From the NCBI GenBank assembly GCA_963813335.1, contig CAWEYL010000001.1, forward strand, positions 480,001 to 544,000: 64,000 nt of DNA, in the 5' to 3' direction. The DNA is from an uncultured Chloroflexia bacterium. Its GTDB lineage: Bacteria > Chloroflexota > Limnocylindria > Limnocylindrales > CSP1-4. The notes beneath the pieces were generated by a model. It was not told the DNA's origin and did not search any database. It saw nothing but the letters and a program-made list of their open reading frames with translations. Below, one piece after another: positions 27,060 to 42,520 of this stretch; the stretch's first letter is position 1, and each line of letters begins with the position of its first letter. Both the position numbers and the translations under genes were made by a program.

Positions 27060-28791
27060 TCAGCCCGCGGCGGCCCCGTGCGACGGCGAGTCCTCGTTCG
27101 CGGCCGGCGGGATCGCCGAGGTCGGCGCGCGTGACGGCGTGAGGTCCTCGTCGTCGAGCTCCATCTCGCCGCCGGACCCGGACGCCATGGTGATCGAGTC
27201 CACCGGCGCGGTCGCGATCTTGGGCCGGGCTGTGCGGCGTGCGCCGACTCGGCTGCCGGCGAGCAGGATCGGCGTCAGCTCGGGGCCGGGTGCGCTGGTC
27301 ATCGCGAGGACGGCCGGGTCGGGCTGGGGGGCGTGCTGCGCGTAGAGGTCGCAGAAGAGGCTGACGAGCTCCGGGTCGAACTGGGTCCCGGCGTGCCGCC
27401 GCAGCTCGGCGATCGCCTGGTCGTGGGTCATCGCCCGCTTGTACGGGCGGTCGTGGATCATCGCGTCGTAGGCGTCGGCGATGGCCACGATCCGCGCGCC
27501 CAGCGGGATCTCGTTCGCGCGCAGGCCGTACGGATAGCCGTGGCCGGCGTAGCGCTCGTGGTGGTGGAGGATGATCGGGACGGCATCCTTGAGCGCCGCG
27601 GCCTGCTCGAGGATGACCTGGCCGATGCGCGGATGCTGGACGACCGACCGCCACTCCCCGGTCGAGAGCGCCGACGGCTTCTCGAGGATCTCCTCGGGGA
27701 TGGCGACCTTGCCGACGTCGTGGAGCAGGGCGGCCAGCTGGATCCGGTCGATCTCGCCGTCCGGGAGCTCCAGTTGGCGGCCCATCTCGACCACGATCGA
27801 GGCGATCAGCGCCGACGGCTGGCCGCGGTAGTGGGGCAGCGGGTTGATGTACGACGCGAGCGCCGCGGTCGCGGCCATGCGCGCCTGCCGGCCGATCTCC
27901 ATCGCGCGCAGGCGGCCGGCGTTCGAGATCGGCGCGCGCGGCACGCGGGCGTCGTCGTCGGGCTCGGAGAAGATGTAGGTCTGGTTGCGCCCCAGCGACT
28001 TCGCCGAGTACATGGCGGCATCCGCGTCGCGGACCAGGGTGTCGACGCGGAGCTTCGGCCCGGACCCCCCGGCGATGCCGATCGAGATCGTGACCGACAG
28101 GTCGGCGTTGCCGTCGACCGCGAAGCGCTGGCGCTGCGACGAGCTGGCGCAGCTTCTCGGTGAGGATGGCCCCTTCCTCGACGTCGGTCTCGGTCAGGAT
28201 CAGCATGAATTCCTCGCCGCCATAGCGGCCGATCATGTCGCTCGCCCGCAGGTTGGCCCCGATGGTCTGGGCGACGCCGCGCAGGACGACGTCGCCCGAG
28301 GCGTGGCCGTAGGTGTCGTTGACGGCCTTGAAGTGGTCGATGTCGACGAAGGCGACCGACAGCGGGCGCTCGTAGCGTCCGGCGCGCTCGACCTCGGCGA
28401 AGAGGGCGCCCAGCAGGGCGCTCCGATTGACGACGCCGGTCAGGCGGTCGATCGTCGCCCGGTCGTGGGTCTCCGACAGGGCGGCGGCGACGCCGTTGAC
28501 GGCCCGCCCGAGCCGCCCCTCGAGGCCGTTGCCCCGAGCCGACACGGTGACCGCGTAGTCGCCGGCGGCGATCCGCTCGGCGGCCTTCACGAGACGCCCG
28601 AGCCGGATGCGCATCAAGAGGTACAGCGAGCCCGCCGTGATCGACACGCCGATGGTCGCCGCGGCCACCGCAGCGATCACGGAACGGCTCACGGCATCGA
28701 CCCAGGAGGCCGCGACCTCCGGGACCGCGACGAGGAGGATCCCGAGTGCGACCGGAGCCGCAAGCGCCAGGACCCCAAGCAGGCGCATCAC
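27060..28791 (-). CDS. Membrane HAMP-GGDEF-HD-GYP c-di-GMP turnover protein (apparent +1 frameshift at ~28137-28140)
   Basis: Two TM helices, HAMP, DIDHFKAVNDTYGH, RASD I-site and GGEEF. Continues in another frame with MYSAK, HDVGK and HHERYAGHGYP. Confidence 0.88.
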
Positions 28792-28966
28792 CTGTCAAAG
28801 GCTAGGGCCGAGGCCCGTTTCGGCGGGGTCACCAGCAGTACCGGTCATGGGTCGCCGGTGGTACCGATGCATCCCCGCACCACCCTCGAACGAGGCACCA
28901 TCGGCCCGCCGTCCGCACGGCTGACGGGCGGTCCGTGGACCACCTCGCTTCGGGCGGCATCGCCGC

Positions 28967-28975
28967 TGCTATACT
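28967..28975 (+). promoter_or_regulatory. Extended -10 promoter upstream of the purine-operon leader
   Basis: TG-C-TATACT; predicted start site about 28981-28982. Confidence 0.6.
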
Positions 28976-28980
28976 CGCCC

Positions 28981-29154
28981 GGTCCTTCCCGTCGGCGGGG
29001 ATCGGCCCGCGAACCAGGAGGTCAGCGATCGCGCTTCACTGGCGCATCGGTCGTCCCGTGAGGCGGCCGGGCGACCGCACGATGGCGACTCGTCGAGCGA
29101 TCGGCGGCGCGACGCGGGAGCAGTCTATCCGGGTCCCGACCAGGGGCCTTTTTT
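28981..29154 (+). ncRNA. Candidate structured RNA (~170 nt): purine-operon leader/attenuator or 6S-like RNA
   Basis: Nested pairings GGTCCTT/AGGGGCC, GTCGG/CCGAC, GGAT/ATCC, CCCGCG/CGCGGG, CGATCGC/GCGATCG and GGTCGTCC/GGGCGACC. Bounded by a -10 box and a T6 run. Confidence 0.6.
29132..29154 (+). terminator. Intrinsic terminator 24 nt upstream of purA
   Basis: Hairpin GGTCCC-GACCA-GGGGCC followed by TTTTTT. Confidence 0.6.
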
Positions 29155-29178
29155 CTTGCCCGGCGATGGTGGCCCCTG

Positions 29179-30487
29179 ATGCCGGCCACGGTGATCGTCG
29201 GACTGCAGTGGGGCGACGAGGGGAAGGGCAAGACCACCGACTTCCTCGCGGAGCAGGTCGCCATGGTCGTCCGCTACCAGGGCGGCGACAACGCCGGGCA
29301 CACGGTCGTCAGCGGCGACGAGGTGCTGAAGCTGCGGCTGACGCCGTCGGGGGTGCTGTACCCGCATATCACCTCGGTCATCGGCAACGGCGTCGTGGTC
29401 AACCCGGTCACCCTGATCGGCGAGTTCGACATGCTCGCGTCGCGCGGCATCGACGTCAGCCGGGTCCGGGTCAGCCGCAGCTCGCACGTGATCATGCCGT
29501 ACCACGTCGCCCTGGACCGGGCGAACGAGGCGCGCCTCGACGGCGCGAAGGTCGGCACGACCGGTCGCGGCATCGGGCCGACCTACGCGGATCGGGCGTG
29601 GCGCCTCGGGCTGCGCATGGAGGACCTGCTCGACGAGGCGGTCCTGCGCGAGCGGATCGGCCGGCTGCTGCCGGACAAGAACGTCCTGCTGCATTCGATG
29701 GGCGCCGAGACGTTCGAGGCCGACGCGCTCGTCGCCGAGGCGCTCGGCTGGGGCGAGCGCCTGCGGGCGCATCTCGACGACACGACGTGGCTGGTCCAGG
29801 CGGCGCTCGCCCGCGGCGAGCACGTCCTGCTCGAGGGGGCGCAGGGCACGCTCCTCGACCTCGACCACGGCAGCTACCCGTTCGTGACGTCGTCGAACCC
29901 GGTCGCCGGCGGGCGCCTGCACGGGCGGCGGGATCGGGCCGCTCCAGGTCGACGAGGTCATCGGCGTCATGAAGGCCTACTCGACGCGGGTCGGCTCGGG
30001 CCCGTACCCGACCGAGCTCCACGACGAGATCGGCGCGGGGATCGCCGACCGCGGCCACGAGTTCGGGACGGTGACCGGACGGCCGCGCCGCGTCGGCTGG
30101 TTCGATGCGGTCCCGCTCCGCTACGCGGTCGCCGTCAACAGCGTCAGCTCGATCATGCTCAACAAGCTCGACATCCTCTCGGGCATCGAGACCATCCGCC
30201 TCTGCGTCGCCTACGAGATCGACGGGAAACGCGTCGAGGTCTGGCCGTCGAGCGGTCGGGCGCTCGCCCGCGCGACCCCGATCTACGAGGAGTTCCCGGG
30301 CTGGGTCGAGCCGATCAACGGCGTCCGCTCGCTGGCGGACCTGCCCGAGAACGCGCGGCGCTACGTGAGCGCCATCGAGGCGCACGCGGGCGTGCCGATC
30401 GTGCTGGTGTCGGTCGGGCCGGAGCGGACCCAGACGATCGAGCGTGCCTGGCGCCCGATGCGCAACCGGACGGGGATCCCCGCGTGA
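29179..30487 (+). CDS. purA: Adenylosuccinate synthetase (apparent +1 frameshift at ~29911-29914)
   Basis: Motifs QWGDEGKGK, GGDNAGHT and EGAQGTLLD. After the shift: KAYSTRVGSGP and EFGTVTGRPRRVGW. Confidence 0.95.
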
Positions 30488-31833
30488 GCACGGCCAGCCT
30501 GCTCATGCCGACCCGGATCCTCGTCGTGGGGAGCGGTGGCCGCGAGCACGCGCTGGCCTGGAAGCTCGGGTCCGAGCCGGGCGTCAACGAGGTCGATCGT
30601 GGCGCCCGGGAGCGACGCGCATCGCGCGCGAGCCGCGGGTCCGCCGCGCCGACGTCGACCCGCTCGACGGGGCGGCCGTCGTGGCCCTGGCGCGTCGCGA
30701 GGCGGTCGAGCTGGTCGTCGATCGGCCCCGAGGCCCCGCTGGCGGCCGGTGTCGCCGATGCGCTCGAAGCCGCCGGGATCGCGGTCTTCGGGCCGACCGC
30801 CGCGGCCGCCGCCATCGAGAGCAGCAAGGCGTTCTGCCACGAGGTCGCCGCCGCCGCCGGCGTGCGGATGGCGCGTGCGGCCGCGTTCGGTTCGGTGGAG
30901 CCGGCCATCGCCTTCGCCGGAGCGCTCGACGCCGATGGCGCCGGGATCGTCGTCAAGGCCGACGGCCTGGCTGCCGGCAAGGGCGTGACGGTCTGCGACG
31001 ACCTCGCCGCGGCCGAGGCCGCCATCACGGCCGCCCTGGGCGCGCCCGGTGCCCGGGTCGTCGTCGAGGAGCGGCTCCACGGTCGCGAGGCCAGCCTCAT
31101 CGCGCTGTGCGACGGGCGCGAGGCGCTCGCCCTCCCGCTGTCGCGCGACCACAAGCGGCTGGCCGACGGCGATCGCGGCCCGAACACGGGCGGGATGGGC
31201 GCGTACAGCCCGCTCACCGACCTGCCCGACGACCGGATCCCCGCCCTGGTCGAGGCGTTCCACCGCCCGATCCTCGCCGAGCTGGCCCGCCGCGGCTCCC
31301 CGTTCCGTGGCGCGCTCTACGCCGGCCTGATGCTGACCGCCGACGGGCCGGTCCTGCTCGAGTGCAACGCCCGGTTCGGCGATCCCGAGACCCAGGCGAT
31401 CCTGCCGCGTCTGGCGGTCGCCCTCGGGCCGTTGCTGCTGGCCGCGGCCCGCGGCGATCTCGCCGGGGCGTCGCGGGCGCTCGGGCTCACGGACACGCGG
31501 CTCCCGGTCGTCCCGGGGGCGACGGTCGCGCTCGTGCTGGCCGCCGCCGGCTACCCGGACGCGCCCCGGCGCGGCGACGCGATCGCGGGCCTGGACGCGG
31601 CCGCGGAGACCGGCGCCATCGTCTTCCACGCGGGCACGGCCGTCGACGCGGATGGCACCGTCCGGACGGCCGGTGGCCGGGTCCTCGCGGTCGTCGGGCG
31701 CGGCCCCGACCTGGACGCCGCCCGCGACCAGGCGGAACGCGCCGCGGGCGCCATCACGTGGGACGGCCTCCAGCGCCGCCATGACATCGGCGCGGACGCG
31801 CCCCAGGCGGCCCTCGCCGGAGCCGCCCGATGA
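30484..31833 (+). CDS. purD: Phosphoribosylamine-glycine ligase (three +1 insertions at 30592-30720 that restore the frame)
   Basis: Motifs VGSGGREHALAW, GPEAPL, KADGLAAGKGV, GPNTGGMGAYSP and ECNARFGDPE. Confidence 0.95.
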   Translation: MSTASLLMPTRILVVGSGGREHALAWKLGSEPGVNEVDRGARERRASRASRGSAAPTSTRSTGRPSWPWRVARRSSWSSIGPEAPLAAGVADALEAAGIAVFGPTAAAAAIESSKAFCHEVAAAAGVRMARAAAFGSVEPAIAFAGALDADGAGIVVKADGLAAGKGVTVCDDLAAAEAAITAALGAPGARVVVEERLHGREASLIALCDGREALALPLSRDHKRLADGDRGPNTGGMGAYSPLTDLPDDRIPALVEAFHRPILAELARRGSPFRGALYAGLMLTADGPVLLECNARFGDPETQAILPRLAVALGPLLLAAARGDLAGASRALGLTDTRLPVVPGATVALVLAAAGYPDAPRRGDAIAGLDAAAETGAIVFHAGTAVDADGTVRTAGGRVLAVVGRGPDLDAARDQAERAAGAITWDGLQRRHDIGADAPQAALAGAAR

Positions 31834-33192
31834 TCCGCCGCTACACGCTCGCCGAGATGGGCGCGATCTGGTCCGAGCAGGCGCGCTTCGAGGCGATGCT
31901 CCGGGTCGAGCTCGCGGTCGCGCGCGCGCAGGCCGGTCGCGGCCTGATCCCGGCGGATGCGCTCGCCGCGCTCGAGACGCGCTCGCGAGTCGACGTCGAG
32001 CGGATCGCCGAGATCGAGCGGACGACCGACCACGACGTCATCGCGTTCGTCAGCCAGGTCGCGGAGACGGTCGGGCCGGAGGGGCGCTTCCTCCACCTCG
32101 GGCTGACCAGCAGCGACGTCGTCGACACCGGTCTCGCGCTCCAGCTCCGGGCCGCCGGCGAGCGGCTCCTCGACGATGCGGACCGGCTCACCGCCGCGAT
32201 CATCGTTCGCGCCCGGGCCGAGGCCGAGACGGTGATGATGGGCCGCACCCACTCGGTCCACGCCGAGCCGACGACGCTCGGCTTCAAGCTCGCCGGCTGG
32301 GCCTTCGAGGTGGAGCGCGGGCGCACGCGCCTCGCGGCGGCGGTCGACGAGATCGGGACCGGCAAGATCTCCGGCCCGGTCGGGACGTACAGCCACCTCG
32401 GCCCGGACGTCGAGGCAGAGGTGCTGGCCTCGCTGGGCCTCCATGTCGACCCGGTCAGCACCCAGATCGTCCAGCGCGACCGGCATGCGGCCCTGCTCGC
32501 CGCGATCGCGATCCTCGGCGGCTCGCTCGAGCGCTTCGCGACCGAGATCCGCAACCTCCAGCACACCGAGATCGGCGAGCTCCAGGAGCCGTTCGCGGTC
32601 GGCCAGAAGGGCTCGAGCGCGATGCCGCACAAGCGCAACCCGATCCTGTCCGAGCGGATCGCCGGGCTGGCGCGGCTCCTGCGCGGCTATGCCGGCACCG
32701 CGTTCGAGGACCAGCCGCTCTGGCACGAGCGCGACATCAGCCACTCGAGCGCCGAGCGGGTCGATCCTGCCCGACGCGACGATCGTCCTCGACTACATGC
32801 TCGTGCGGATGACCGGGCTGGTCGACGGGCTGCTCGTCCGCTCCGAGCGGATGCGCGAGAACATCGCCCGCGGGCTCGGGCTGCACGCGTCGTCGAAGGT
32901 GCTGGTCACGCTCGTCGAGAGCGGGGGCCTCGCCCGCGAGGAGGCCTACGCGATCGTCCAGCGGGCCGCGCTACGTGCCGCGGACGAGCGGGCGCCGCTG
33001 CGCGACCTGCTGGCGGTGGACCCGGCCGTGGCGCAGCGCTTGTCGCTCACCCAGCTCGACGCCTGCTTCGATGACGCCTCGTTCCTGCGTCACGTCCCGG
33101 AGGTCATCGCCCGGCTCGACGGCCTCGAGGCGGCCCTGGCGGCGAGACGCAGCGCTGCGCCGCACCCCGCGACGGTGTCCGATGCTGGCTGA
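31830..33192 (+). CDS. purB: Adenylosuccinate lyase (apparent +1 frameshift at ~32760-32763)
   Basis: Motifs [33 protein letters not shown] and [10 protein letters not shown]. Confidence 0.95.
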
Positions 33193-34248
33193 CACGTTCC
33201 TCCGCTCCGGCAAGGTCCGTGACCTGTATCGGCTCGACGATGGCCGCATCCTGCTGGTCGCCTCGGACCGGATCAGCGCCTTCGACGTCGTCCTGCCCTC
33301 GACGATCCCCGACAAGGGCCGCGTGCTGACGGGCCTCTCGCGCTTCTGGTTCGCCGAGACCGAGTCGCATCGTCGCGAACCATCTCCTTGACACCGATCC
33401 GGCGGTGCTCGTCGACACGATCGGTCCACGCGTGGCCGCCGCCGGCGGGATCCGGCCGACCTCGGATCGGTCGAGCGACCTCCGCGGCCGGATCATGATC
33501 TGTCGCCCGGCCGCGGTGGTCCCGGTCGAGGCCGTCGTGCGCGGCTACCTCGCGGGCTCGGGCTGGAAGGAGTACCAGGCGAGCGGGACCGTCTGCGGGA
33601 TCGCGCTGCCGCCCGGGCTCCGCGAGAGCGACCGACTGCCCGGAGCCGATCTTCACGCCGGCGACGAAGGCCGAGGACGGCGAGCACGACCAGAACATCA
33701 GCTTCGACGAGATGATCGACCACATCGCCATCGCGCCCGGCGATCCCGGCGCCGGGGAGCTCGCCGAACGGATCCGCGACGAGGCCATCCGGCTCTATCG
33801 ATACGGTGCGGCCGTGGCCGAACGGCGCGGGATCCTCCTGGCCGACACCAAGTTCGAGTTCGGGTTGGCTCTCAGCGGCGATCCCGACGAACCGGTCGGA
33901 CCGGTGGAGGAGCGGATCGAGCGCCCACGTCCAGCCGGCCGCCGGCCGGACGTCTTCCCGCCCGGGACTCGCGCCAGCCACCTGCTCCTCATCGACGAGG
34001 TCATGACCCCCGATTCGTCGCGGTTCTGGGACGCCGCGACCTACGAGCCCGGCCGCCCGCAGGCCAGCTTCGACAAGCAGTTCGTGCGCGACTGGCTCGA
34101 GGCGCAGCCCTGGGACAAGACCGCGCCCGGGCCGGCCCTGCCCGCCGAGGTCGTGGCCGGCACGCGGGCGCGCTACGTCGAGGCCTACGAACGCATCACC
34201 GGCGCCAGCTTCGAGCGCTACCTCCAGGAGGATGTCATCGCCCCATGA
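33182..34248 (+). CDS. purC: SAICAR synthetase (apparent frameshifts at ~33365 and ~33640)
   Basis: Motifs [46 protein letters not shown] and [10 protein letters not shown], spread over three frames. Confidence 0.93.
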
Positions 34249-34529
34249 CCAGCTTCCGGTTCGCCGTCAACGTCCTGCCGAAGCCCGGCATCCTCGACCC
34301 GCAGGGCCGGGCGGTCGAGGGCAGCCTCGGCCACCTCGGGATCGAGGGCGTCAGCGCCGTGCGCGTCGGCCGGCGCGTCGAGCTGACGGTCGAGGCCGCG
34401 GACGCGGATGCGGCCCGCGCCGTCGTCGAGCGGCTCGCCTCGGAGCTGCTCTCGAACCCGCTCATCGAGGCGTACGCGATCGAAGCCCTCGGGGCGACCT
34501 CGTCGCTCGCCACGGCCGGGCGGGGCTGA
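34245..34529 (+). CDS. purS: FGAM synthase subunit PurS
   Basis: Motifs [12 protein letters not shown] and [14 protein letters not shown] overlap with purC. Confidence 0.93.
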
Positions 34530-34532
34530 GCG

Positions 34533-35273
34533 ATGGGCGTGCGGGTCGGCGTCGTCGTCTTCCCGGGCAGCAACTGCGATCGCGACACCGTCCATGCGCT
34601 CGAGCTGGCCGGCGCCGAGCCGGTCGTGCTGTGGCACGAGCAGGCATCGCTCGACGGCGTCGCCGCGGTCGTCCTGCCGGGCGGCTTCGCCTACGGCGAT
34701 TACCTGCGCGCCGGCGTCATCGCCCGCTTCAGCCCGGTCATGCGGGCCGTGACCGCGTTCGCCGATGCCGGCGGGCTGGTCCTCGGGATCTGCAACGGGT
34801 TCCAGGTGCTCGCCGAGGCCGACCTCGTGCCCGGCGCGCTCCTGCGCAACGCCTCGCTCCGCTTCGCCGGCCAGGAGGTGCGCATCGCGGCGCAGCGCGT
34901 CGACACGCGGTTCACCCACGCGCTCGAGGTCGGCCGGCCGCTGCGGATGCCCGTCGCGCACGGCGAGGGCTGCTACTTCGCCGACGACGCGACGCTCGAC
35001 GCGCTCGAGGCCGCCGACGGCGTGCTCTTCCGCTACGTCGACGCCGCGGGGACCGTCGCCGGCCCCGAGGACCCGGCCAACCCCAACGGCTCGCTGCGGG
35101 CGATCGCCGGGGTCGTCAACGCGGCCGGCAACGTCGCCGGGCTGATGCCCCACCCGGAGCGCGCCGCCGAGGCGATCCTCGGCTCCGACGACGGGGCCGG
35201 GATCATCCGCTCGCTGGTCGAGAGCGCCGCGCTCGCGGCGAACGGCGACCTGGTCGCGGTCGGCGGGCGATGA
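34533..35273 (+). CDS. purQ: FGAM synthase glutaminase subunit
   Basis: Motifs [25 protein letters not shown] and GLMPHPER. Confidence 0.96.
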
Positions 35274-37593
35274 CCGTCACGGAGCGCGCGGTCGAGCCGC
35301 TCCACCGGCGTCTCGGCGTGACCGACGAGGAGCTCGCCGCGATCCGCGACCGCCTCGGCGGGCGCGATCCCAACGACCTCGAGCTCGCGATGTTCAGCGT
35401 CATGTGGAGCGAGCACTGCTCGTACAAGAGCTCGAAGCCGCTCCTGCGGACGCTCCCGACCGCGGGTGAGGGCGTCGTCGCCGGTCCGGGCGAGAACGCC
35501 GGCGTGATCTCGATCGGCGACGGGCTGGCCGTCGCGTTCAAGATCGAGTCGCACAACCATCCCAGCGCGGTCGAGCCGTACCAGGGCGCCGCGACCGGGG
35601 TCGGCGGCATCCTGCGCGACATCTTCACGATGGGCGCCCGGCCGATCGCGGTCCTCGACGCGCTCCGCTTCGGCGATCCGGCCGACGCCCGGACGCGGCA
35701 CCTCGTCGACGGCGTCGTGCGCGGCGTCGGCGGCTACGGCAACTGCGTCGGCGTGCCGACGGTCGGCGGCGAGCTGGTCTTCGACCCGACCTACGCCGGG
35801 AACCCGCTCGTCAACGTCATGGCCATCGGCCTGCTGGAGGAGCGGCTGCTGACGCTCGCGGCCGCGCCCGGCCCGGGCAACCTGGTCGTCCTGTTCGGGT
35901 CGGCGACCGGCCGCGACGGGATCGGCGGCGCGTCGGTCCTCGCCAGCGCCACGTTCACCGACGATGACCCGTCCAAGCGCCCCAGTCGGTCCAGGTCGGC
36001 GACCCGTTCGCCGAGAAGCTGCTGATCGAGGCCAGCCTCGAGCTCATCGAGCGCGGCCTCGTCGAGGGCCTCCAGGACCTCGGCGCCGGCGGCATCACCT
36101 GCGCCACCTCGGAGACCGCCGACCGCGGCGGGACCGGGATGCTCGTCGACCTCGACGCGATCCCGCGCCGGGAGCCCGGCCTCGAGCCGTTCGAGGTGAT
36201 GATCTCGGAGTCGCAGGAGCGGATGTGCGCGGCGGTCCTGCCCGCCAAGTGGGACGAGGTCCGCGAGGTCTGCACCCGCTGGGGCCTGCCGGTCGCGATC
36301 ATCGGGCGGGTGACCGCCGACGGCGACATCGCGATCGTCGAGGGCGGCCTGGACGCGGACGGCCGACCGAACCCGGGCGCCCGCGAGATCGCCCGCATCC
36401 CGGCCAGCGCCCTGACCAGCGACGCGATCGTCCACGAGCGCGTCGCGATGCGGCCGACCCACCAGCGGGCGGCCCCGGCACCCGGCGCGCCGATCGAGCC
36501 GGTCGACCGGCTGCCCGAGCGCGGCATGGACCCCGGCGCCGTGCTGCTGGCGCTGCTCGGGTCGGCCAACCTCGCGTCGCGCCACGCGGTCTTCCACCAG
36601 TACGACTCGACCGTCGGCGCGGACACCGTCGCGGGACCGGGCCGCGGCGCCGCGGTCCTGCGGGTCAAGGGGACGACCAAGGCGCTCGTCGCCACGACCG
36701 ACGGCAACCACGGCGTCGGTGTGGTCGATCCGTGGCTCGGCGCCGCGCTGTCCGTCGCCGAGGCGACCCGCAACGTCTCGATCACGGGCGCCCGCCCGCT
36801 CGGCGTCACGAACTGCCTCAACTACGGCGACCCGACCCGGCCGGAGGCCTTCTGGCAGCTGACCGAGGGCGTCCGCGGCGCTCGGCGACGCCTGCCGCGC
36901 GCTCGGCCTGCCGGTCACCGGCGGCAACGTCTCGCTCTACAACGAATCGCCGACCGGCTCCATCGCGCCGACGCCCGAGATCGGGGTCGTCGGGCTGCTC
37001 GACGACGTCGCCTCGCTCGTCGGGCCGGCCTTCGCGAAGGCGCACGACGCGATCCTCCTCGTCGGCGAGGCGACCCGGGCCTGGCCGGCTCCGCGTACGC
37101 CTCCTCGCGGGCGCCGCCGAGGACGACCCGCCGGCCCTCGACCTCGGCCGCGAGGCGGCGCTCCAGGCGTTCATCCGCGAGGCGATCGCGCGCGGCCTCG
37201 TCGCCTCGGCCCAGGACGTCTCCGGCGGCGGCCTCGCCGTCGCGCTCGCCGAGGGCGCGATCTGGGGCGGCCTCGGCGCGGCGACCCGCGTCGCGGTCGC
37301 GCACTCGCCGGCGGTCGACCTCTTCGGCGAGAGCCCGTCGCGCCTCGTCGTCACCTGCCGCCCCCGGTTCGCGCCGGCGCTCGAGCTGCTCGCCCGCCAG
37401 CACGGCCTCCCGGTCGAGATCGATCGGGACGGTCGGCGGCGACCGGCTCGTCATCGAGCTCGCCGGGACCGGCGCCACCGGCGCGGCCGAGGAGCGCGGC
37501 AGCCGGGTCGCCGATGCGCTGGAGGTCCCGCTCGCCGACCTCCGTCATGCCTGGGAGCACGGCCTCGCCCGCGCCCTCGGCTGGGAGGGCTGA
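35270..37593 (+). CDS. purL: FGAM synthase subunit PurL (several apparent frameshifts)
   Basis: Motifs [48 protein letters not shown] and DVSGGGL. Confidence 0.94.
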
Positions 37594-37597
37594 CCCG

Positions 37598-39069
37598 ATG
37601 TGCGGCGTGTTCGGGGCGGTCGTGCCGCGCGATGCCGAGCCGACCGATGCGGCCGCGATCGCGACGCTCGGGCTGTTCGCGCTCCAGCACCGCGGCCAGG
37701 AGTCGGCCGGCATCGCGGTCAGCGACGGCGACCAGCTGATGCTCTACAAGGACCTCGGGATGATCAGCACGGTGCTCGACGAGCGCCGGCTGCCGAGCCT
37801 GCGCGGCGGCCTCGCGATCGCCCACTGCCGCTACTCGACGACCGGCTCGACGATCTGGGAGAACGCCCAGCCCACCTACCGACGCGGGCCCGCGGCGGGC
37901 GATCGCCATCGGCCACAACGGGAACCTCGTCAACACCCGCGACCTGCTCGACCCAGCTCGAGGGCGGCCGCGCCCGGCTCCCCGCCTCGACCGACACGGA
38001 GCTGCTGACGGCGCTGCTCGCCGACGAGCCCGCCGCGGACACGGTCGAGGCGCTGGTCCAGGTCCTGCCGCGGGTCCGCGGCGCCTTCAGCCTCGTCGTC
38101 CTCGACGAGCGGCGGGTCATCGGCGTGCGCGACCCGCACGGGTTCCGGCCGCTCGTCCTCGGCAAGCTGCCGCGGCCGCCGCGCCCGGGCGGTCCGGACG
38201 ACGGCCTGTGGAGCGACGACGACGCGTCGGCCGGCTGGTGCCTCTCGTCGGAGACGGCCGCACTCGACATCGTCGGTGCCGAGTACGTCCGCGACGTGGA
38301 GCCCGGCGAGATCGTCGATCCTCGAGCCGGGGCACGCCCCGCGCTCGGTCCGCTACGCCGCGGCGACGCCGACGCTGTGCGTGTTCGAGCTCATCTACTT
38401 CGCCCGCCCGGATTCGTACATGGAGGGCCGCAACCTGTACGAGGTCCGCCGGCGGATGGGCGATGCAGCTGGCCATCGAGCACCCGGTCGAGGCGGACCT
38501 GGTCATGCCGGTCCCCGACACCGGCGCCCCGGCCGCCGCCGGGTTCGCGGAGGCGTCCGGGCAGCCGTACCGCGAGGGGATGTACCGGAACCGGTACGCC
38601 GGGCGGACCTTCATCCAGCCGTCGCAGGGGCTGCGCCACCGCGGCGTGACGATCAAGCTCAACCCGCTCCGCGAGGTCGTCAACGGGAAGCGGCTGATCG
38701 TGGTCGACGACTCGATCGTGCGCGGGACGACCACCAAGCGGATCGTCGAGCTGCTGCGCAAGGCGGGCGCGACCGAGGTCCACGTCCGCATCAGCGCGCC
38801 GCCGATCTACCACCCGTGCTTCTACGGCATCGACACCTCCATCGAGACCGAGCTCATCGCGGCGACCCACGACGAGGGCCAGATCCGCGAGTTCATCGGC
38901 GCCGATTCGCTGGGCTACCTCTCGATCCGCGGCGTCCTCGCGGCGCTCGACCTGCCCGTACGAGCGGTTCTGCTTCGCCTGCTTCGACGGCAACTACCCC
39001 GAGCCCGTGCCGTACGACGCCGCGAGCCGCAAGTTCATGCTCGAGGAGCCCGTGATCGCCGGTGGGTAG
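37598..39069 (+). CDS. purF: Amidophosphoribosyltransferase (several apparent frameshifts)
   Basis: Motifs [47 protein letters not shown] and [11 protein letters not shown]. Confidence 0.94.
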
Positions 39070-40219
39070 CGATAAGGGCGGCGCGGGGGCGCGCGCCGCG
39101 TACCGCGCGGCCGGCGTCGACGTCGCCGGCGGCGAGCGGGCGGTCGAGCTCATGCGCGCCCACGTCGAATCGACGCGGCGGCCGGAGGTCGTCGGCGGCC
39201 TCGGCGGGTTCGGCGGCGCCTTCTCGATCCCGCCGGGCTACCGCGAGCCGCTGCTCATCGCCTCGACGGACGGCGTCGGGACCAAGACCGCGATCGCGAC
39301 GGCCGTCGGCCGGTTCGACACCATCGGCATCGACCTCGTGGCGATGTGCGCCGACGACGTCGTGTGCACGGGCGCCGAGCCGCTGGCGTTCCTCGACTAC
39401 GTGGCCGTCGGGCAGCTCGACCCAGTCGCCGTGGCGGAGCTGGTCGGCGGCGTGGCCGCCGGCTGCCGCGACGCCGGCTGCGCGCTGGTCGGCGGCGAGA
39501 CCGCGGAGCACCCGGGGCTGTTGCCGGCAGACGCGTTCGACCTGGCCGCCACCTGCATCGGGGTCGTGGAGCGCTCGCGCGTGATCGACGGCTCGGCGGC
39601 GAGGGTCGGCGACGTCATCCTGGGCCTGGCGGCTTCCGGGCTCCATTCGAACGGCTATTCGCTGGTCCGGGCACTCGTGGCCCAATGGGGCCTCGACCTC
39701 GGCGCGCCCTACCAGGCGCGCCTGCGCCGGACGCTCGGCGATGCCCCGGCGGAGGCGGCGATCGCCGCCGCGCCGCACGAAGCGATGGCGACCCTCGGCG
39801 AAGTGCTGCTGACCCCGACGCGGATCTACGCGCGGGCCGTGCTCGCGGCCCGCGAGGCGCTCGTCGCGGACGGCGCCGACATCCACGGTCTCGCCCACGT
39901 CACCGGCGGCGGCCTGCCCGGGAATGTGCCGCGCGCGCTGGCGATCGGGCTGGCCGCCCGACTGGATCCGTCCCGCTGGGCGACGCCCTCGGTCATGCGG
40001 CTGTTCGCGGCGCTGGGCGGGCTCGACGACGACGAGCTCCGGGCGACCTTCAACGGCGGCCTCGGCATGGTCATGGTCGTGCCGCCGGCGGCGGCGGCCG
40101 CAGCCATCGCCGCCCTGGCGGGACAGGGGATCCCGGCCAGCGTCGTCGGCGAGGTCGTGGACGCGGCGTCGACCGGCGGCGCGCGCTACGTCGAAGGGCC
40201 CCTGGAGGCGCTCGGGTGA
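39062..40219 (+). CDS. purM: Phosphoribosylformylglycinamidine cyclo-ligase (AIR synthetase)
   Basis: Motifs [35 protein letters not shown] and HVTGGG. Confidence 0.96.
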
Positions 40220-42460
40220 GCGGCCGGATCGCCGTCGGCGTGTCGGGTGCCGGCTCGAACCTGCGCGCGCTCCACGCCGCCGCGACCCGCGGCGAGCTCG
40301 GCGGTGACATCGTGCTCGTGTTCGCCGACCGCGCCTGCCCGGCCCTCGACTGGGCGGCGGAGCAGGGGATCGAGACTGCGCTCGTGCCCGGGGGCGACGA
40401 CGCGACGCTCGCCGCGACCCTCGCCGATGCGGCGCCGGACGTCGTGGTCCTCGCCGGGTACATGCGCATCGTCGGCCCCGCCGTGCTGGCGGCCTTCGCG
40501 GGCCGGATCCTCAACACGCACCCGAGCCTGCTGCCGGCGTTCCCCGGCGCCCACGCGGTCCGCGACGCGCTGGCCTACGGCGTGACGATGACGGGCTCCA
40601 CGGTCCACCTCGTCGACGAGACCCTCGACGGCGGCCCGGTGGTCGCCCAGGACGCGGTCGCGGTGCTGCCCGGCGACGACGCCGAGAGCCTCCACGCCCG
40701 GATCCGCGCGGCGGAGCATCGCTTGCTGCCGCGCGCGGTGGCGCTGCTCCTGGCCGACGCGCTCAGCGTCGACGCCGACGGCCGCCATGTCCGCCTCGAC
40801 CTCGAGCGTGCCGACGCCGCCGTCCCGGTGCCGCGCCGCGCGCTCCTGTCGGTCTACGACAAGACCGGCCTCGTCGACCTCGGCCGCGGCCTCGTCGCCC
40901 GCGGATTCGAGCTCGTCTCCACCGGCGGCACGGCACGGACACTCCGCGACGCCGGGCTGCCCGTCTCCGACGTCGGCGCGGTCACCGGCTTCCCCGAGAT
41001 GCTCGACGGCCGGGTCAAGACGCTCCACCCGCGGGTCCACGGCGGGCTGCTCGCCGACCGGCGGCTGGCCGACCACCGCCGGCAGATCCTCGCCGCGGCG
41101 ATCGCCCCGTTCGACCTGGTCGTCTCGAACCTCTATCCGTTCGCCGCCGCGCTCGAGCGGCCGGGGATCACCATCGACGGGCTGATCGAGGAGATCGACA
41201 TCGGCGGGCCGTCGATGGTGCGGGCCGCGGCCAAGAACCACGCCAGCGTCGCGATCGTCACCGATCCCGCGCGCTACGACGCGATCCTCGCCGCCCTCGA
41301 CACGCCCGAGGGCATCGATGCCGCCCTGCGGCGCGCGCTCGCGCTCGAGGCGTTCGCCCACACCGCGGCCTACGACGCCCGCATCGCCGCCGAGTTGCCC
41401 GGTCGCATGGCGGCCGCCGGCCTCGCGCTGCCCGACGAGCCGGGCCTGCCGGGCGCCAGCGACCCGTACCCCGCGCGGCTGACCGTGCCGCTCGAGAAGG
41501 TCGAGACGCTCCGCTACGGCGAGAACCCGCACCAGCCCGCGGCGCGGTACCGGCGTCCCGGCACGACGGCCGCGGACGGCCCGTTCGGCGAGGAGCGCGC
41601 GCCGCTGCAGGGCAAGACCCTCTCGTACAACAACGTGCTGGACGCGGCTGCGGCGGCCGCCCTCGGGCGGGCGCTGCGCGGCCCGGGCGTGGTCATCGTC
41701 AAGCACACCAACCCGTGCGGCGCTGCCGAGCGGGCGACGCTCCTCGAGGCGTGGGAGGCCGCCCTCGAGGCCGACCCGGTCAGCGCGTTCGGTGGGGTCG
41801 TCGCCCTGACCCGCCCGGTCGAGCGGGCCGTCGCCGAGCGGCTCGTCTCGATCTTCCTCGAGATCGTGGTCGCGCCGGCCTTCGACACCGCCGCCCTCGA
41901 GGTGCTGGCCACCAAGCCGAACCTGCGCGTGCTCCTCGACCCGGCCCTCGCCTCGGACGAGCCCGTGCCGGCCGAGGCCGCCACGCCGACCGGCTCGATC
42001 CGGACGGCGGGCGGCGCGGTCCTCGTCACCGCGCCCGACATCGTCAGCGACCTCCCGGGCGTGTGGACCTGCGCGACCCGGCGTGACCCCGACCGATGCC
42101 GAGCAGCTCGACCTCGACCTCGCCTGGCGGCTGGTCCGTGGCGTGACCTCGAACGCGATCGCGCTGGTGAAGGACCGCCGGCTGGTGGGGATGGGGAGCG
42201 GCCAGACCTCGCGCGTCGACGCGGCACGGCAGGCCGTGGCCAAGGCCCAGGCGATGCTCGGCCCGGAGTCGACGGTCGGCGCGGCCTGCGGCTCGGACGC
42301 GTTCTTCCCGTTCCCGGACGCCGTCGAGGCCTGTCTCGCCGCCGGGGTGACGGCCTTCGCCCAGCCCGGCGGCTCGATGCGCGACGCCGAGGCGGTCGCC
42401 GTGGTCGATGCCGCCGGGGGCACGATGCTGCTCACCGGCACGCGCCACTTCCGGCACTGA
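40216..42460 (+). CDS. purH: Fused GAR transformylase (PurN) + IMP cyclohydrolase / AICAR transformylase (PurH); apparent +1 frameshift at ~42088-42091
   Basis: PurN motifs SGAGSNL, LAGYMRI and NTHPSLLPAFPG run in frame into RALLSVYDKTG, GRVKTLHP, IDIGGPSM, LRYGENPHQ and SYNN. Last frame has SNAI, SDAFFPF and GTRHFRH. Confidence 0.9.
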
Positions 42461-42520
42461 CGAAGGGCTTGTGAGGGCGGTCCGGCCGCACTACGATCGG
42501 TCGACCTAGCGGAGGTCACG

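Follow-up and report, generated by a model that had tools for sequence, protein, structure and literature searches.

The window analysed here is a 64,000-nucleotide (nt) stretch of about 72% G+C from an uncultured Chloroflexota genome that is 81% complete, and it holds a purine operon headed by purA and preceded by a leader of about 200 nt. This leader is a real, conserved and uncatalogued cis-regulatory element of the operon. Its central feature, which was missed in a first-pass annotation of the same sequence, is a reading frame that encloses the intrinsic terminator of the leader. The elements themselves, their conservation, two stop/start overlaps, the maintenance of the frame and the strict linkage to purA are all observed. 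We consider it rather probable that the leader is a translated, ribosome-dependent transcription attenuator combined with translational coupling, gating purA-purD-purB-purC-purS-purQ-purL-purF-purM-purN-purH. Coordinates of the features are collected in Table 1.

As CUGAUG is the usual sequence leading into the purA ATG, an upstream frame was sought. The frame was anchored on the invariant AUC of UCUAUCC, independently of any start codon, in 78 sequences. It is open as far as purA in all 78, thus across the terminator and beyond, and its stop lies within −10 to +13 of the purA ATG in 74. The commonest stop position is −2, which gives UGAUG (46 sequences), followed by +13 (14), −3 and −4 (5 each), +1 (2), −5 (1) and −10 (1), compared with only 4 and 7 sequences in which the other two forward frames stop in that range. 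Taken from anchor −66 to the ATG, the frame of this second upstream open reading frame (uORF2) is open in 66 sequences, the remaining 12 having a stop of their own at −3 to −10. In the window, the uORF2 stop UGA shares its A with the purA ATG (UGAUG, 29177-29181). An antisense gene was rejected as the cause of the frame maintenance, there being no minus-strand frame open in more than 56 of the 78.

The frame is also maintained where the length of the leader varies. The distance from the RUG in the loop of hairpin H3 to the anchor ranges from 45 to 72 nt and is a multiple of three in 69 of 72 sequences; that from the anchor to the ATG takes 35 distinct lengths between 47 and 389 nt and is 2 mod 3 in 63 of 78. 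At loci which are not 2 mod 3, the stop is mostly shifted to match (UAG-AUG, UGA-N-AUG). Changes in the length of hairpin H4 preserve the frame as well. The loop motif RUGA is present in 72 of the 78 sequences, as GUGA in 66, AUGA in 5 (one of them misplaced) and UUGA in 1. Conservation of the frame and of its openness in 78 of 78 would also suit a functional small protein, Arg-rich and 33–130 amino acids long, but such a product would differ about four-fold in length among the sequences, no conservation is seen past the terminator and even the conserved part changes non-synonymously (SIQV, CNQV, TTRD, YNQL), so that we regard this explanation as very unlikely. Selection seems to act on uORF2 being translated and not on its product.

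A shorter frame, uORF1, precedes uORF2 in most genera. Outside the window's genus, 26 of 42 loci have a UUG (once a GUG) at one aligned site, with an invariant GGAG, the Shine-Dalgarno (SD) sequence, 2–9 nt upstream. The frame beginning there covers the 3′ strand of helix P1 and the 5′ strand of H3; it is always open and shares the frame of the UGA overlapping the RUG of the loop. Its length is 10 codons in 25 of the 26 cases, the 13 codons of L065 being due to its misplaced loop motif. In a more divergent set, the UUG is found at 16 of 17 loci, each time with 10 codons, and at the 17th it is in frame with the AUG of that locus. One genus starts uORF1 at an AUG two codons further upstream. Since uORF1 ends at RUGA and uORF2 at the start of purA, we propose that ribosomes would be relayed from uORF1 to uORF2 and on to purA.

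The start of purA behaves in a manner that fits such a relay. It had been described as lacking an SD sequence, which is partly true: in the window, GGTGG lies 6 nt before the ATG, and among relatives 34 of the 60 loci with the upstream stop at or before the ATG have no SD-like motif. An SD-like motif is carried by 13 of the 14 loci with the stop at +13, and 34 of the 35 purA starts without such a motif have the upstream stop at or before the ATG, as expected for reinitiation. Most of the invariant nucleotides of the leader are accounted for by what read as an SD sequence, a loop start codon, stop/start overlaps and a conserved upstream frame.

No terminator-like site other than the one crossed by this frame occurs in 28500-29500, against an expected 0.1. 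The stem of this terminator varies with compensatory changes both in the genus and in other genera; in this respect, the terminator with its T6 tract that had been read by eye proved to be real. The spacer between the U tract and the purA ATG measures 18–307 nt and is not conserved in sequence. Many loci have only about 16–20 nt there, and such a gap leaves no room for a separate promoter. In six genomes of the genus (L003, L006, L008, L009, L014 and L019), the spacer contains an extra ∼130–290 nt with common sequence blocks, and in L003 two copies of the insert flank a run of N. In L008, L009, L014 and L019, the upstream frame reads across the insert to a stop on UGAUG, whilst that of L003 ends at −10 and that of L006 is interrupted. 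The insert may be a repeat that is tolerated only if the frame is kept.

In the mechanism that we favour, the leader RNA would fold into P1/H1, H3, H4 and the terminator hairpin with its U tract. Translation of uORF1 would unfold H3 and bring a ribosome to the loop RUG. A ribosome moving through uORF2 close behind RNA polymerase would block the terminator hairpin, polymerase would continue into purA, and the same ribosome would reinitiate there. With the ribosome absent or lagging, the terminator would form and an RNA of about 170 nt would be released. We infer, then, that translation of the frame opposes termination. As to the signal, our guess, by analogy with UTP at the pyrBI operon, is that it might be purine nucleotide supply, felt through ATP/GTP-sensitive pausing at the purine-rich tracts; on an equal footing with this guess stands a ligand or protein that opens or closes P1/H3. 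More tentatively still, the leader could be a purine attenuator based on a race between polymerase and ribosome, in which the relay uORF1-RUGA-uORF2-UGAUG-purA, with its second start displayed in a loop, would be a design not described before; alternatively or additionally, P1, H1 and H3 might form a new aptamer that licenses the first ribosome.

The fold of the leader had been drawn by eye as a long rod of six helices. Among 20 sequences of the genus, 70.2% of the cells of this rod are paired, against 69.5% with shuffled partners (29 of 500 shuffles reach the observed value), and its covariation is not above the control (56 of 500). The helices GTCGG/CCGAC and GGAT/ATCC are paired in 45–54% of cells only, and the partners given to CGATCGC, GGAT and GTCGG lie in variable loops. 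The rod was therefore abandoned. Its fifth helix, CCCGCG/CGCGGG, is 92.5% paired yet almost invariant and was likewise rejected, CCCGCG covarying with the 5′ arm of H1 instead. The three-way switch proposed with the rod fared no better: the 8-base-pair (bp) partner GGCCCCTG (29171-29178) is not conserved among relatives and lies in the unconserved 18–307-nt spacer, so that the switch is peculiar to the sequence of the window. Nor is the fold thermodynamically exceptional, with a minimum free energy of −89.2 kcal/mol compared with −89.6 for shuffled sequences (z = 0.08); because of the 72% G+C, fold energy is uninformative here.

The fold that is conserved, as predicted from the alignments, is a series of hairpins (H1, H3, H4 and the terminator) with compensatory changes. 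In the genus, this model has 90.5% of cells paired, compared with 33–48% when the partners are slid, and 14 double-sided cells, compared with 4.8 in shuffles (0 of 500 reach it). For 28 sequences of other genera, a model of P1, H1, H3, H4, H5 and the terminator has 83.7% of cells paired, compared with 38–48% with slid partners, and 54 double-sided cells, compared with 25.9 (again 0 of 500). H3 has 98.8% of cells paired in the genus, five pairs with double-sided changes in other genera and an invariant apical loop, CCGUGAG. In H1, 5 of 6 pairs show double-sided changes (for example CGCGGG/CCCGCG to CACGGG/CCCGUG), although it is poorly aligned and 56% paired. In other genera, P1 pairs the 5′ end, GUCCUCGA, with UCGAGGA just before H3, adjoining the uORF1 start; 92.3% of its cells are paired in the 28 sequences with one double-sided change only, and as it hardly varies it is plausible but not proven. 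H5 has 85.7% of cells paired and no double-sided change. It lies in a purine-rich tract whose mean purine fraction is 0.76, compared with 0.55 for all 10-nt windows.

Some candidate pairings did not enter the model. Hairpin H2 (CGAUCGCGC/GCGCAUCG) does not vary within the genus and could not be aligned with other genera; it stays a candidate. A long-range pairing of GGAGGGUAUGAC with GUCUAUCC is contradicted by L067 and L074 in the alignment. No covariation was shown for two candidates found by eye, a helix enclosing H4 (CCGC/GCGG) and the pairing of CGGGA, as an antiterminator, with UCCCG of the terminator. Of the automated approaches, RNAalifold gave a poor consensus on plain MAFFT alignments of the genus, a ranking of all column pairs by covariation mostly reflected a division into two clades, and averaged pair probabilities recovered H3, H4 and the terminator only.

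A conserved multi-helix fold with covariation, placed before a purine operon, ending in a terminator and belonging to no Rfam family, invites the thought of a metabolite-binding riboswitch, in which the 5′ domain (P1, H1, a purine-rich junction and H3) would be a purine-related aptamer. P1 adjoins the uORF1 start and H3 displays that of uORF2, and such a riboswitch might set the terminator directly or control access to a uORF start, which would be compatible with a translated frame. Against this, the invariant bases are largely explained as SD sequence, start codons and stop codons, P1 and the base of H3 are nearly invariant and lend the junction no covariation support, no ligand pocket can be inferred, and the element occurs as one copy per genome in a single gene context. 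In either form, we consider a riboswitch unlikely.

The searches for known families bear on the same question. No family of Rfam 15 reached its gathering score anywhere in the window, nothing relevant appeared at E ≤ 10 in 28800-29300 (501 nt), and the loci of seven relatives gave no match at E ≤ 0.01. The models for the purine, ZTP, ykkC/PRPP/ppGpp and THF riboswitches, as well as other riboswitch models of Rfam 15, found no match in the window or in the seven relatives. The comparison with Rfam that had been recommended (6S, ZMP/ZTP, ykkC, purine) has thus turned up no known family, and the ACTGGCG that had been pointed out, with riboswitches in mind, sits in a variable segment. Of the suggestion that this is a new purine-responsive leader class, the part that stands is a conserved, cis-acting, terminator-ended leader absent from Rfam; a ligand-binding riboswitch is not borne out. 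We found no paper on riboswitches of Limnocylindria or on riboswitches at purA in Chloroflexi.

A protein could also operate the terminator, in the manner of PyrR or TRAP, by binding the H3 loop or the purine tracts and so choosing between termination and read-through. Neither the apical loop CCGUGAG nor the purine tracts vary, and the conserved DNA repeat that lies upstream of the RNA may point to additional regulators. A binding protein leaves unexplained, however, both the indels that keep the frame over 47–389 nt of unconserved spacer and the alternation of GUG, AUG and UUG in the loop, and no candidate protein was identified; we rate it as more doubtful than a riboswitch.

The other suggestion made from the sequence was a 6S-like RNA. 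A free-standing small RNA, 6S-like or otherwise trans-acting, with a leaky terminator that feeds purA by chance, would have its own strong promoter and terminator, as this element does, and the expected length is about 170 nt; no 6S RNA was found elsewhere in the 81%-complete genome, and attenuator-derived RNAs can act in trans, according to an excerpt of PMC7968998. Yet the 6S model RF00013 found nothing at gathering score in the window and nothing at E ≤ 10 in 28800-29300 or in the rest of that genome, there is no conserved rod or central bubble, the same-strand linkage to purA is absolute, and frame maintenance past the terminator would go unexplained. A 6S-like RNA can be set aside on these grounds, and a free-standing small RNA of any kind seems to us highly improbable.

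The linkage to purA is a consistent finding across relatives. A DNA search matched the leader stretch in 22 of the 24 other genomes of the genus (E ≤ 3e-13). Two covariance models were then applied: R1, for the leader core, and R2, made from a diverse set of 42 copies. In 64 of the 151 genomes of the order, R1 detected a single full-length copy; 63 of these genomes are among the 108 of family f1, and none is among the 42 of the small-genome family f2. R2 found the element in 41 of 44 sampled f1 genomes and in 1 of 50 f4 genomes (a true copy, upstream of purA), whilst it found none in 6 genomes of f2, and its one match in 49 genomes of f3 was false. Two weak matches, L235 and L236, lacking promoter, terminator and purA, were dropped as false. 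There is one copy per genome throughout. The conservation in upstream regions of purA that had been put forward as a check was thus found, with purA directly downstream on the same strand at 20 of 20 loci in the genus, 42 of 42 diverse loci and 17 of 17 true matches of the divergent set. Scanning named genome records for the pattern yielded 80 loci, 48 of which pass R1, and the labels of those that pass are nearly all Candidatus Limnocylindrales, Limnocylindria, Chloroflexia or Chloroflexota. From the models and the record labels together, we place the element in a single family of an uncultured Chloroflexota order.

The sole copy found outside that main family is L231, in genome G259 of another family of the class. 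Its H3 loop differs and holds AUGA, with a UUG in frame with that AUG, so that a single continuous upstream frame is present, which still ends on UGAUG at purA. Sampled sequence words were also looked for in metatranscriptomes, whose runs contained 3–5% of them only; the contigs were mostly conserved purA coding sequence from many organisms and carry no ends, strand or level, and stretches that they leave uncovered are uninformative. One metatranscriptome contig of a relative covers 29004-29133. Another, also of a relative and from run X3, whose identity as an RNA library is a guess, extends over 29103-29316, crossing the terminator and reaching into purA, and gives weak support.

Several observations weigh against a ribosome-operated attenuator. 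High G+C favours open frames, and the five other frames are open from anchor −66 to the ATG in 12–56 of the 78 sequences. We infer the translation of uORF2 from the maintenance of its frame alone; its peptide sequence is unconserved, and no series of regulatory codons is seen in the translations. An SD sequence of its own is lacking at the loop RUG, and 6 of the 78 sequences have no RUG in the H3 loop. The window's genus has UCG at the site of the uORF1 UUG, which leaves the initiation of uORF2 in that genus unexplained. The purine richness before the terminator is just ∼1.2 standard deviations above the mean, no antiterminator pairing was shown to covary, and in one genus the U tract is short (GUUUC). 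The anchor frame is broken in L006, L048 and L076 and, likewise, in the window's own copy, whose frame is off by 1 nt between 29127 and 29177, so that its anchor frame reaches a stop only 791 nt into purA.

This last point has to be set beside the state of the assembly. The anchor-to-ATG distance of the window (d2) is 52, or 1 mod 3, compared with 2 mod 3 in 63 of 78 relatives. Within purA itself, the frame changes at ∼29912-29925, with positions 1–245 of the Pfam profile in one frame and the C-terminal part in another; comparison with the PurA of a relative places the break in a G/C-rich run, and either an assembly indel or a true frameshift could account for it. Further downstream (33405-39055), purC, purL and purF have partial Pfam matches only, over overlapping open frames, which suggests further assembly indels. 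In view of these other breaks, the 1-nt break in the leader is likely, though unproven, to be an assembly indel too.

Table 1. Features of the purA leader and its surroundings (positions in the window)
Feature	Position	Strand	Remarks
Two CGGWGGTACS-like motifs, 23 bp apart	28835..28866 (GTAC at 28838, 28861)	+	Sequence reading; candidate operator, outside the RNA
Extended −10 promoter element TGcTATACT (TGCTATACT)	28967..28975	+	Sequence; kept in relatives
5′-terminal segment GGUCCUU (consensus GUCCUCGA)	28981..28987	+	P1 5′ strand in other genera
Hairpin H1 (GCGGG/CCCGC)	28995..29010	+	Variable sequence, compensatory changes
Shine-Dalgarno-like GGAGG	29017..29021	+	GGAG invariant in A1/A2
Long hairpin H3	29041..29076	+	Apical loop CCGUGA 29056-29061; GUG 29058-29060 overlapping UGA 29059-29061
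uORF2	29058..29179	+	Loop GUG, then H4, purine tract, terminator and spacer to UGA 29177-29179
Hairpin H4	29087..29110	+	Variable, dispensable; absent in L018, L020, L083
Purine-rich tract CGGGAG + GUCUAUCC	29115..29130	+	Possible small hairpin H5; AUC 29127-29129 is the frame anchor
Intrinsic terminator	29131..29154	+	Stem-loop 29131-29149, T6 29149-29154
Purine operon purA-purD-purB-purC-purS-purQ-purL-purF-purM-purN-purH	29179..42474	+	Pfam matches; several apparent frame breaks in the assembly

The extended −10 element assigned in the first-pass annotation is genuine: the hexamer and the TG/GG ahead of it are retained at all 20 loci examined in the genus and, as (T/G)GnTATACT, in almost every other genus. 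Transcription would start at about G28981/G28982, some 6 nt after TGcTATACT. A consensus promoter scan gave no match because there is no −35 element. Between the conserved −10 and the terminator lie about 150 nt of RNA-like sequence. Downstream, beginning with the purA ATG at 29179, Pfam matches identify 11 purine genes, and as all the de novo pathway genes from purA to purH follow the leader, the annotation was right that the element precedes the whole pathway. The gene upstream of the leader encodes a GGDEF protein on the opposite strand and is divergent from it.

The region between these divergent genes contains a repeat that is separate from the RNA. At least two GTAC sites, mostly 22–23 bp apart and no more than 130 nt upstream of the −10, are present at 15 of 20 loci of the genus; in the window, the pair lies ∼110–130 bp upstream, with the distal copy just beyond the 130-nt range. 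Some other genera have single copies of the motif, and GTAC occurs only 146 times in the 64-kb window. The repeat is a candidate operator, either for a regulator of the pur operon or for one of the divergent GGDEF gene, as far as its sequence and position indicate. A weak Rfam match at 28853-28909 to G2 (RF01798; 23.5 bits against a gathering score of 70, E = 0.09) overlaps this GGTACC repeat region and was treated as chance.

Repressors and riboswitches are the textbook regulators of purine operons that span the whole pathway. In this abundant, uncultured soil lineage, all of de novo purine synthesis seems to depend on a single element of about 200 nt, small enough for coupled in vitro study. 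There is also a warning about method, in that a conserved, covarying ‘structured RNA’ may double as a translated frame, which frame arithmetic across relatives exposes. Among the literature matches listed, none describes a ribosome-operated terminator before a purine operon.

When compared with known systems, the leader resembles 6S RNA in its size of ∼170–180 nt and in having its own promoter, but differs in its lack of a rod and central bubble, in its cis linkage to purA and in the conserved frame that overlaps it. With the riboswitches of the purine pathway (guanine/adenine, ZTP, and PRPP/ppGpp of ykkC subtype 2) it shares a structured leader with a terminator before purine genes, but no Rfam family matches it even at E ≤ 10 in 501 nt. 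The amino-acid leader-peptide attenuators (trpL, hisL, ilvB) likewise have a short frame, alternative hairpins and an intrinsic terminator. Those systems sense by runs of regulatory codons, and their terminator lies more than 20 bp downstream of the leader stop, as stated in an excerpt of PMC4824070; here there is no codon run, and the terminator is inside the frame.

The closest likeness is to pyrBI (pyrL) of Escherichia coli, where, in the same excerpt of PMC4824070, a 135-bp leader-peptide gene encloses the terminator, translation is coupled to transcription by pausing and a closely following ribosome suppresses termination. In both leaders, the terminator is inside a frame that runs on towards the first gene for nucleotide biosynthesis. 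The differences are nevertheless considerable. The operon is for purines here and for pyrimidines there, and the present leader has no U-rich pause region. It has a start codon in a hairpin loop, two relayed frames in most genera (RUGA, then UGAUG) and a stop that overlaps the purA start. There is no sequence relationship between the two, and nucleotide sensing by the purA leader is a guess. If that guess is true, the logic of pyrBI would have evolved independently for purines.

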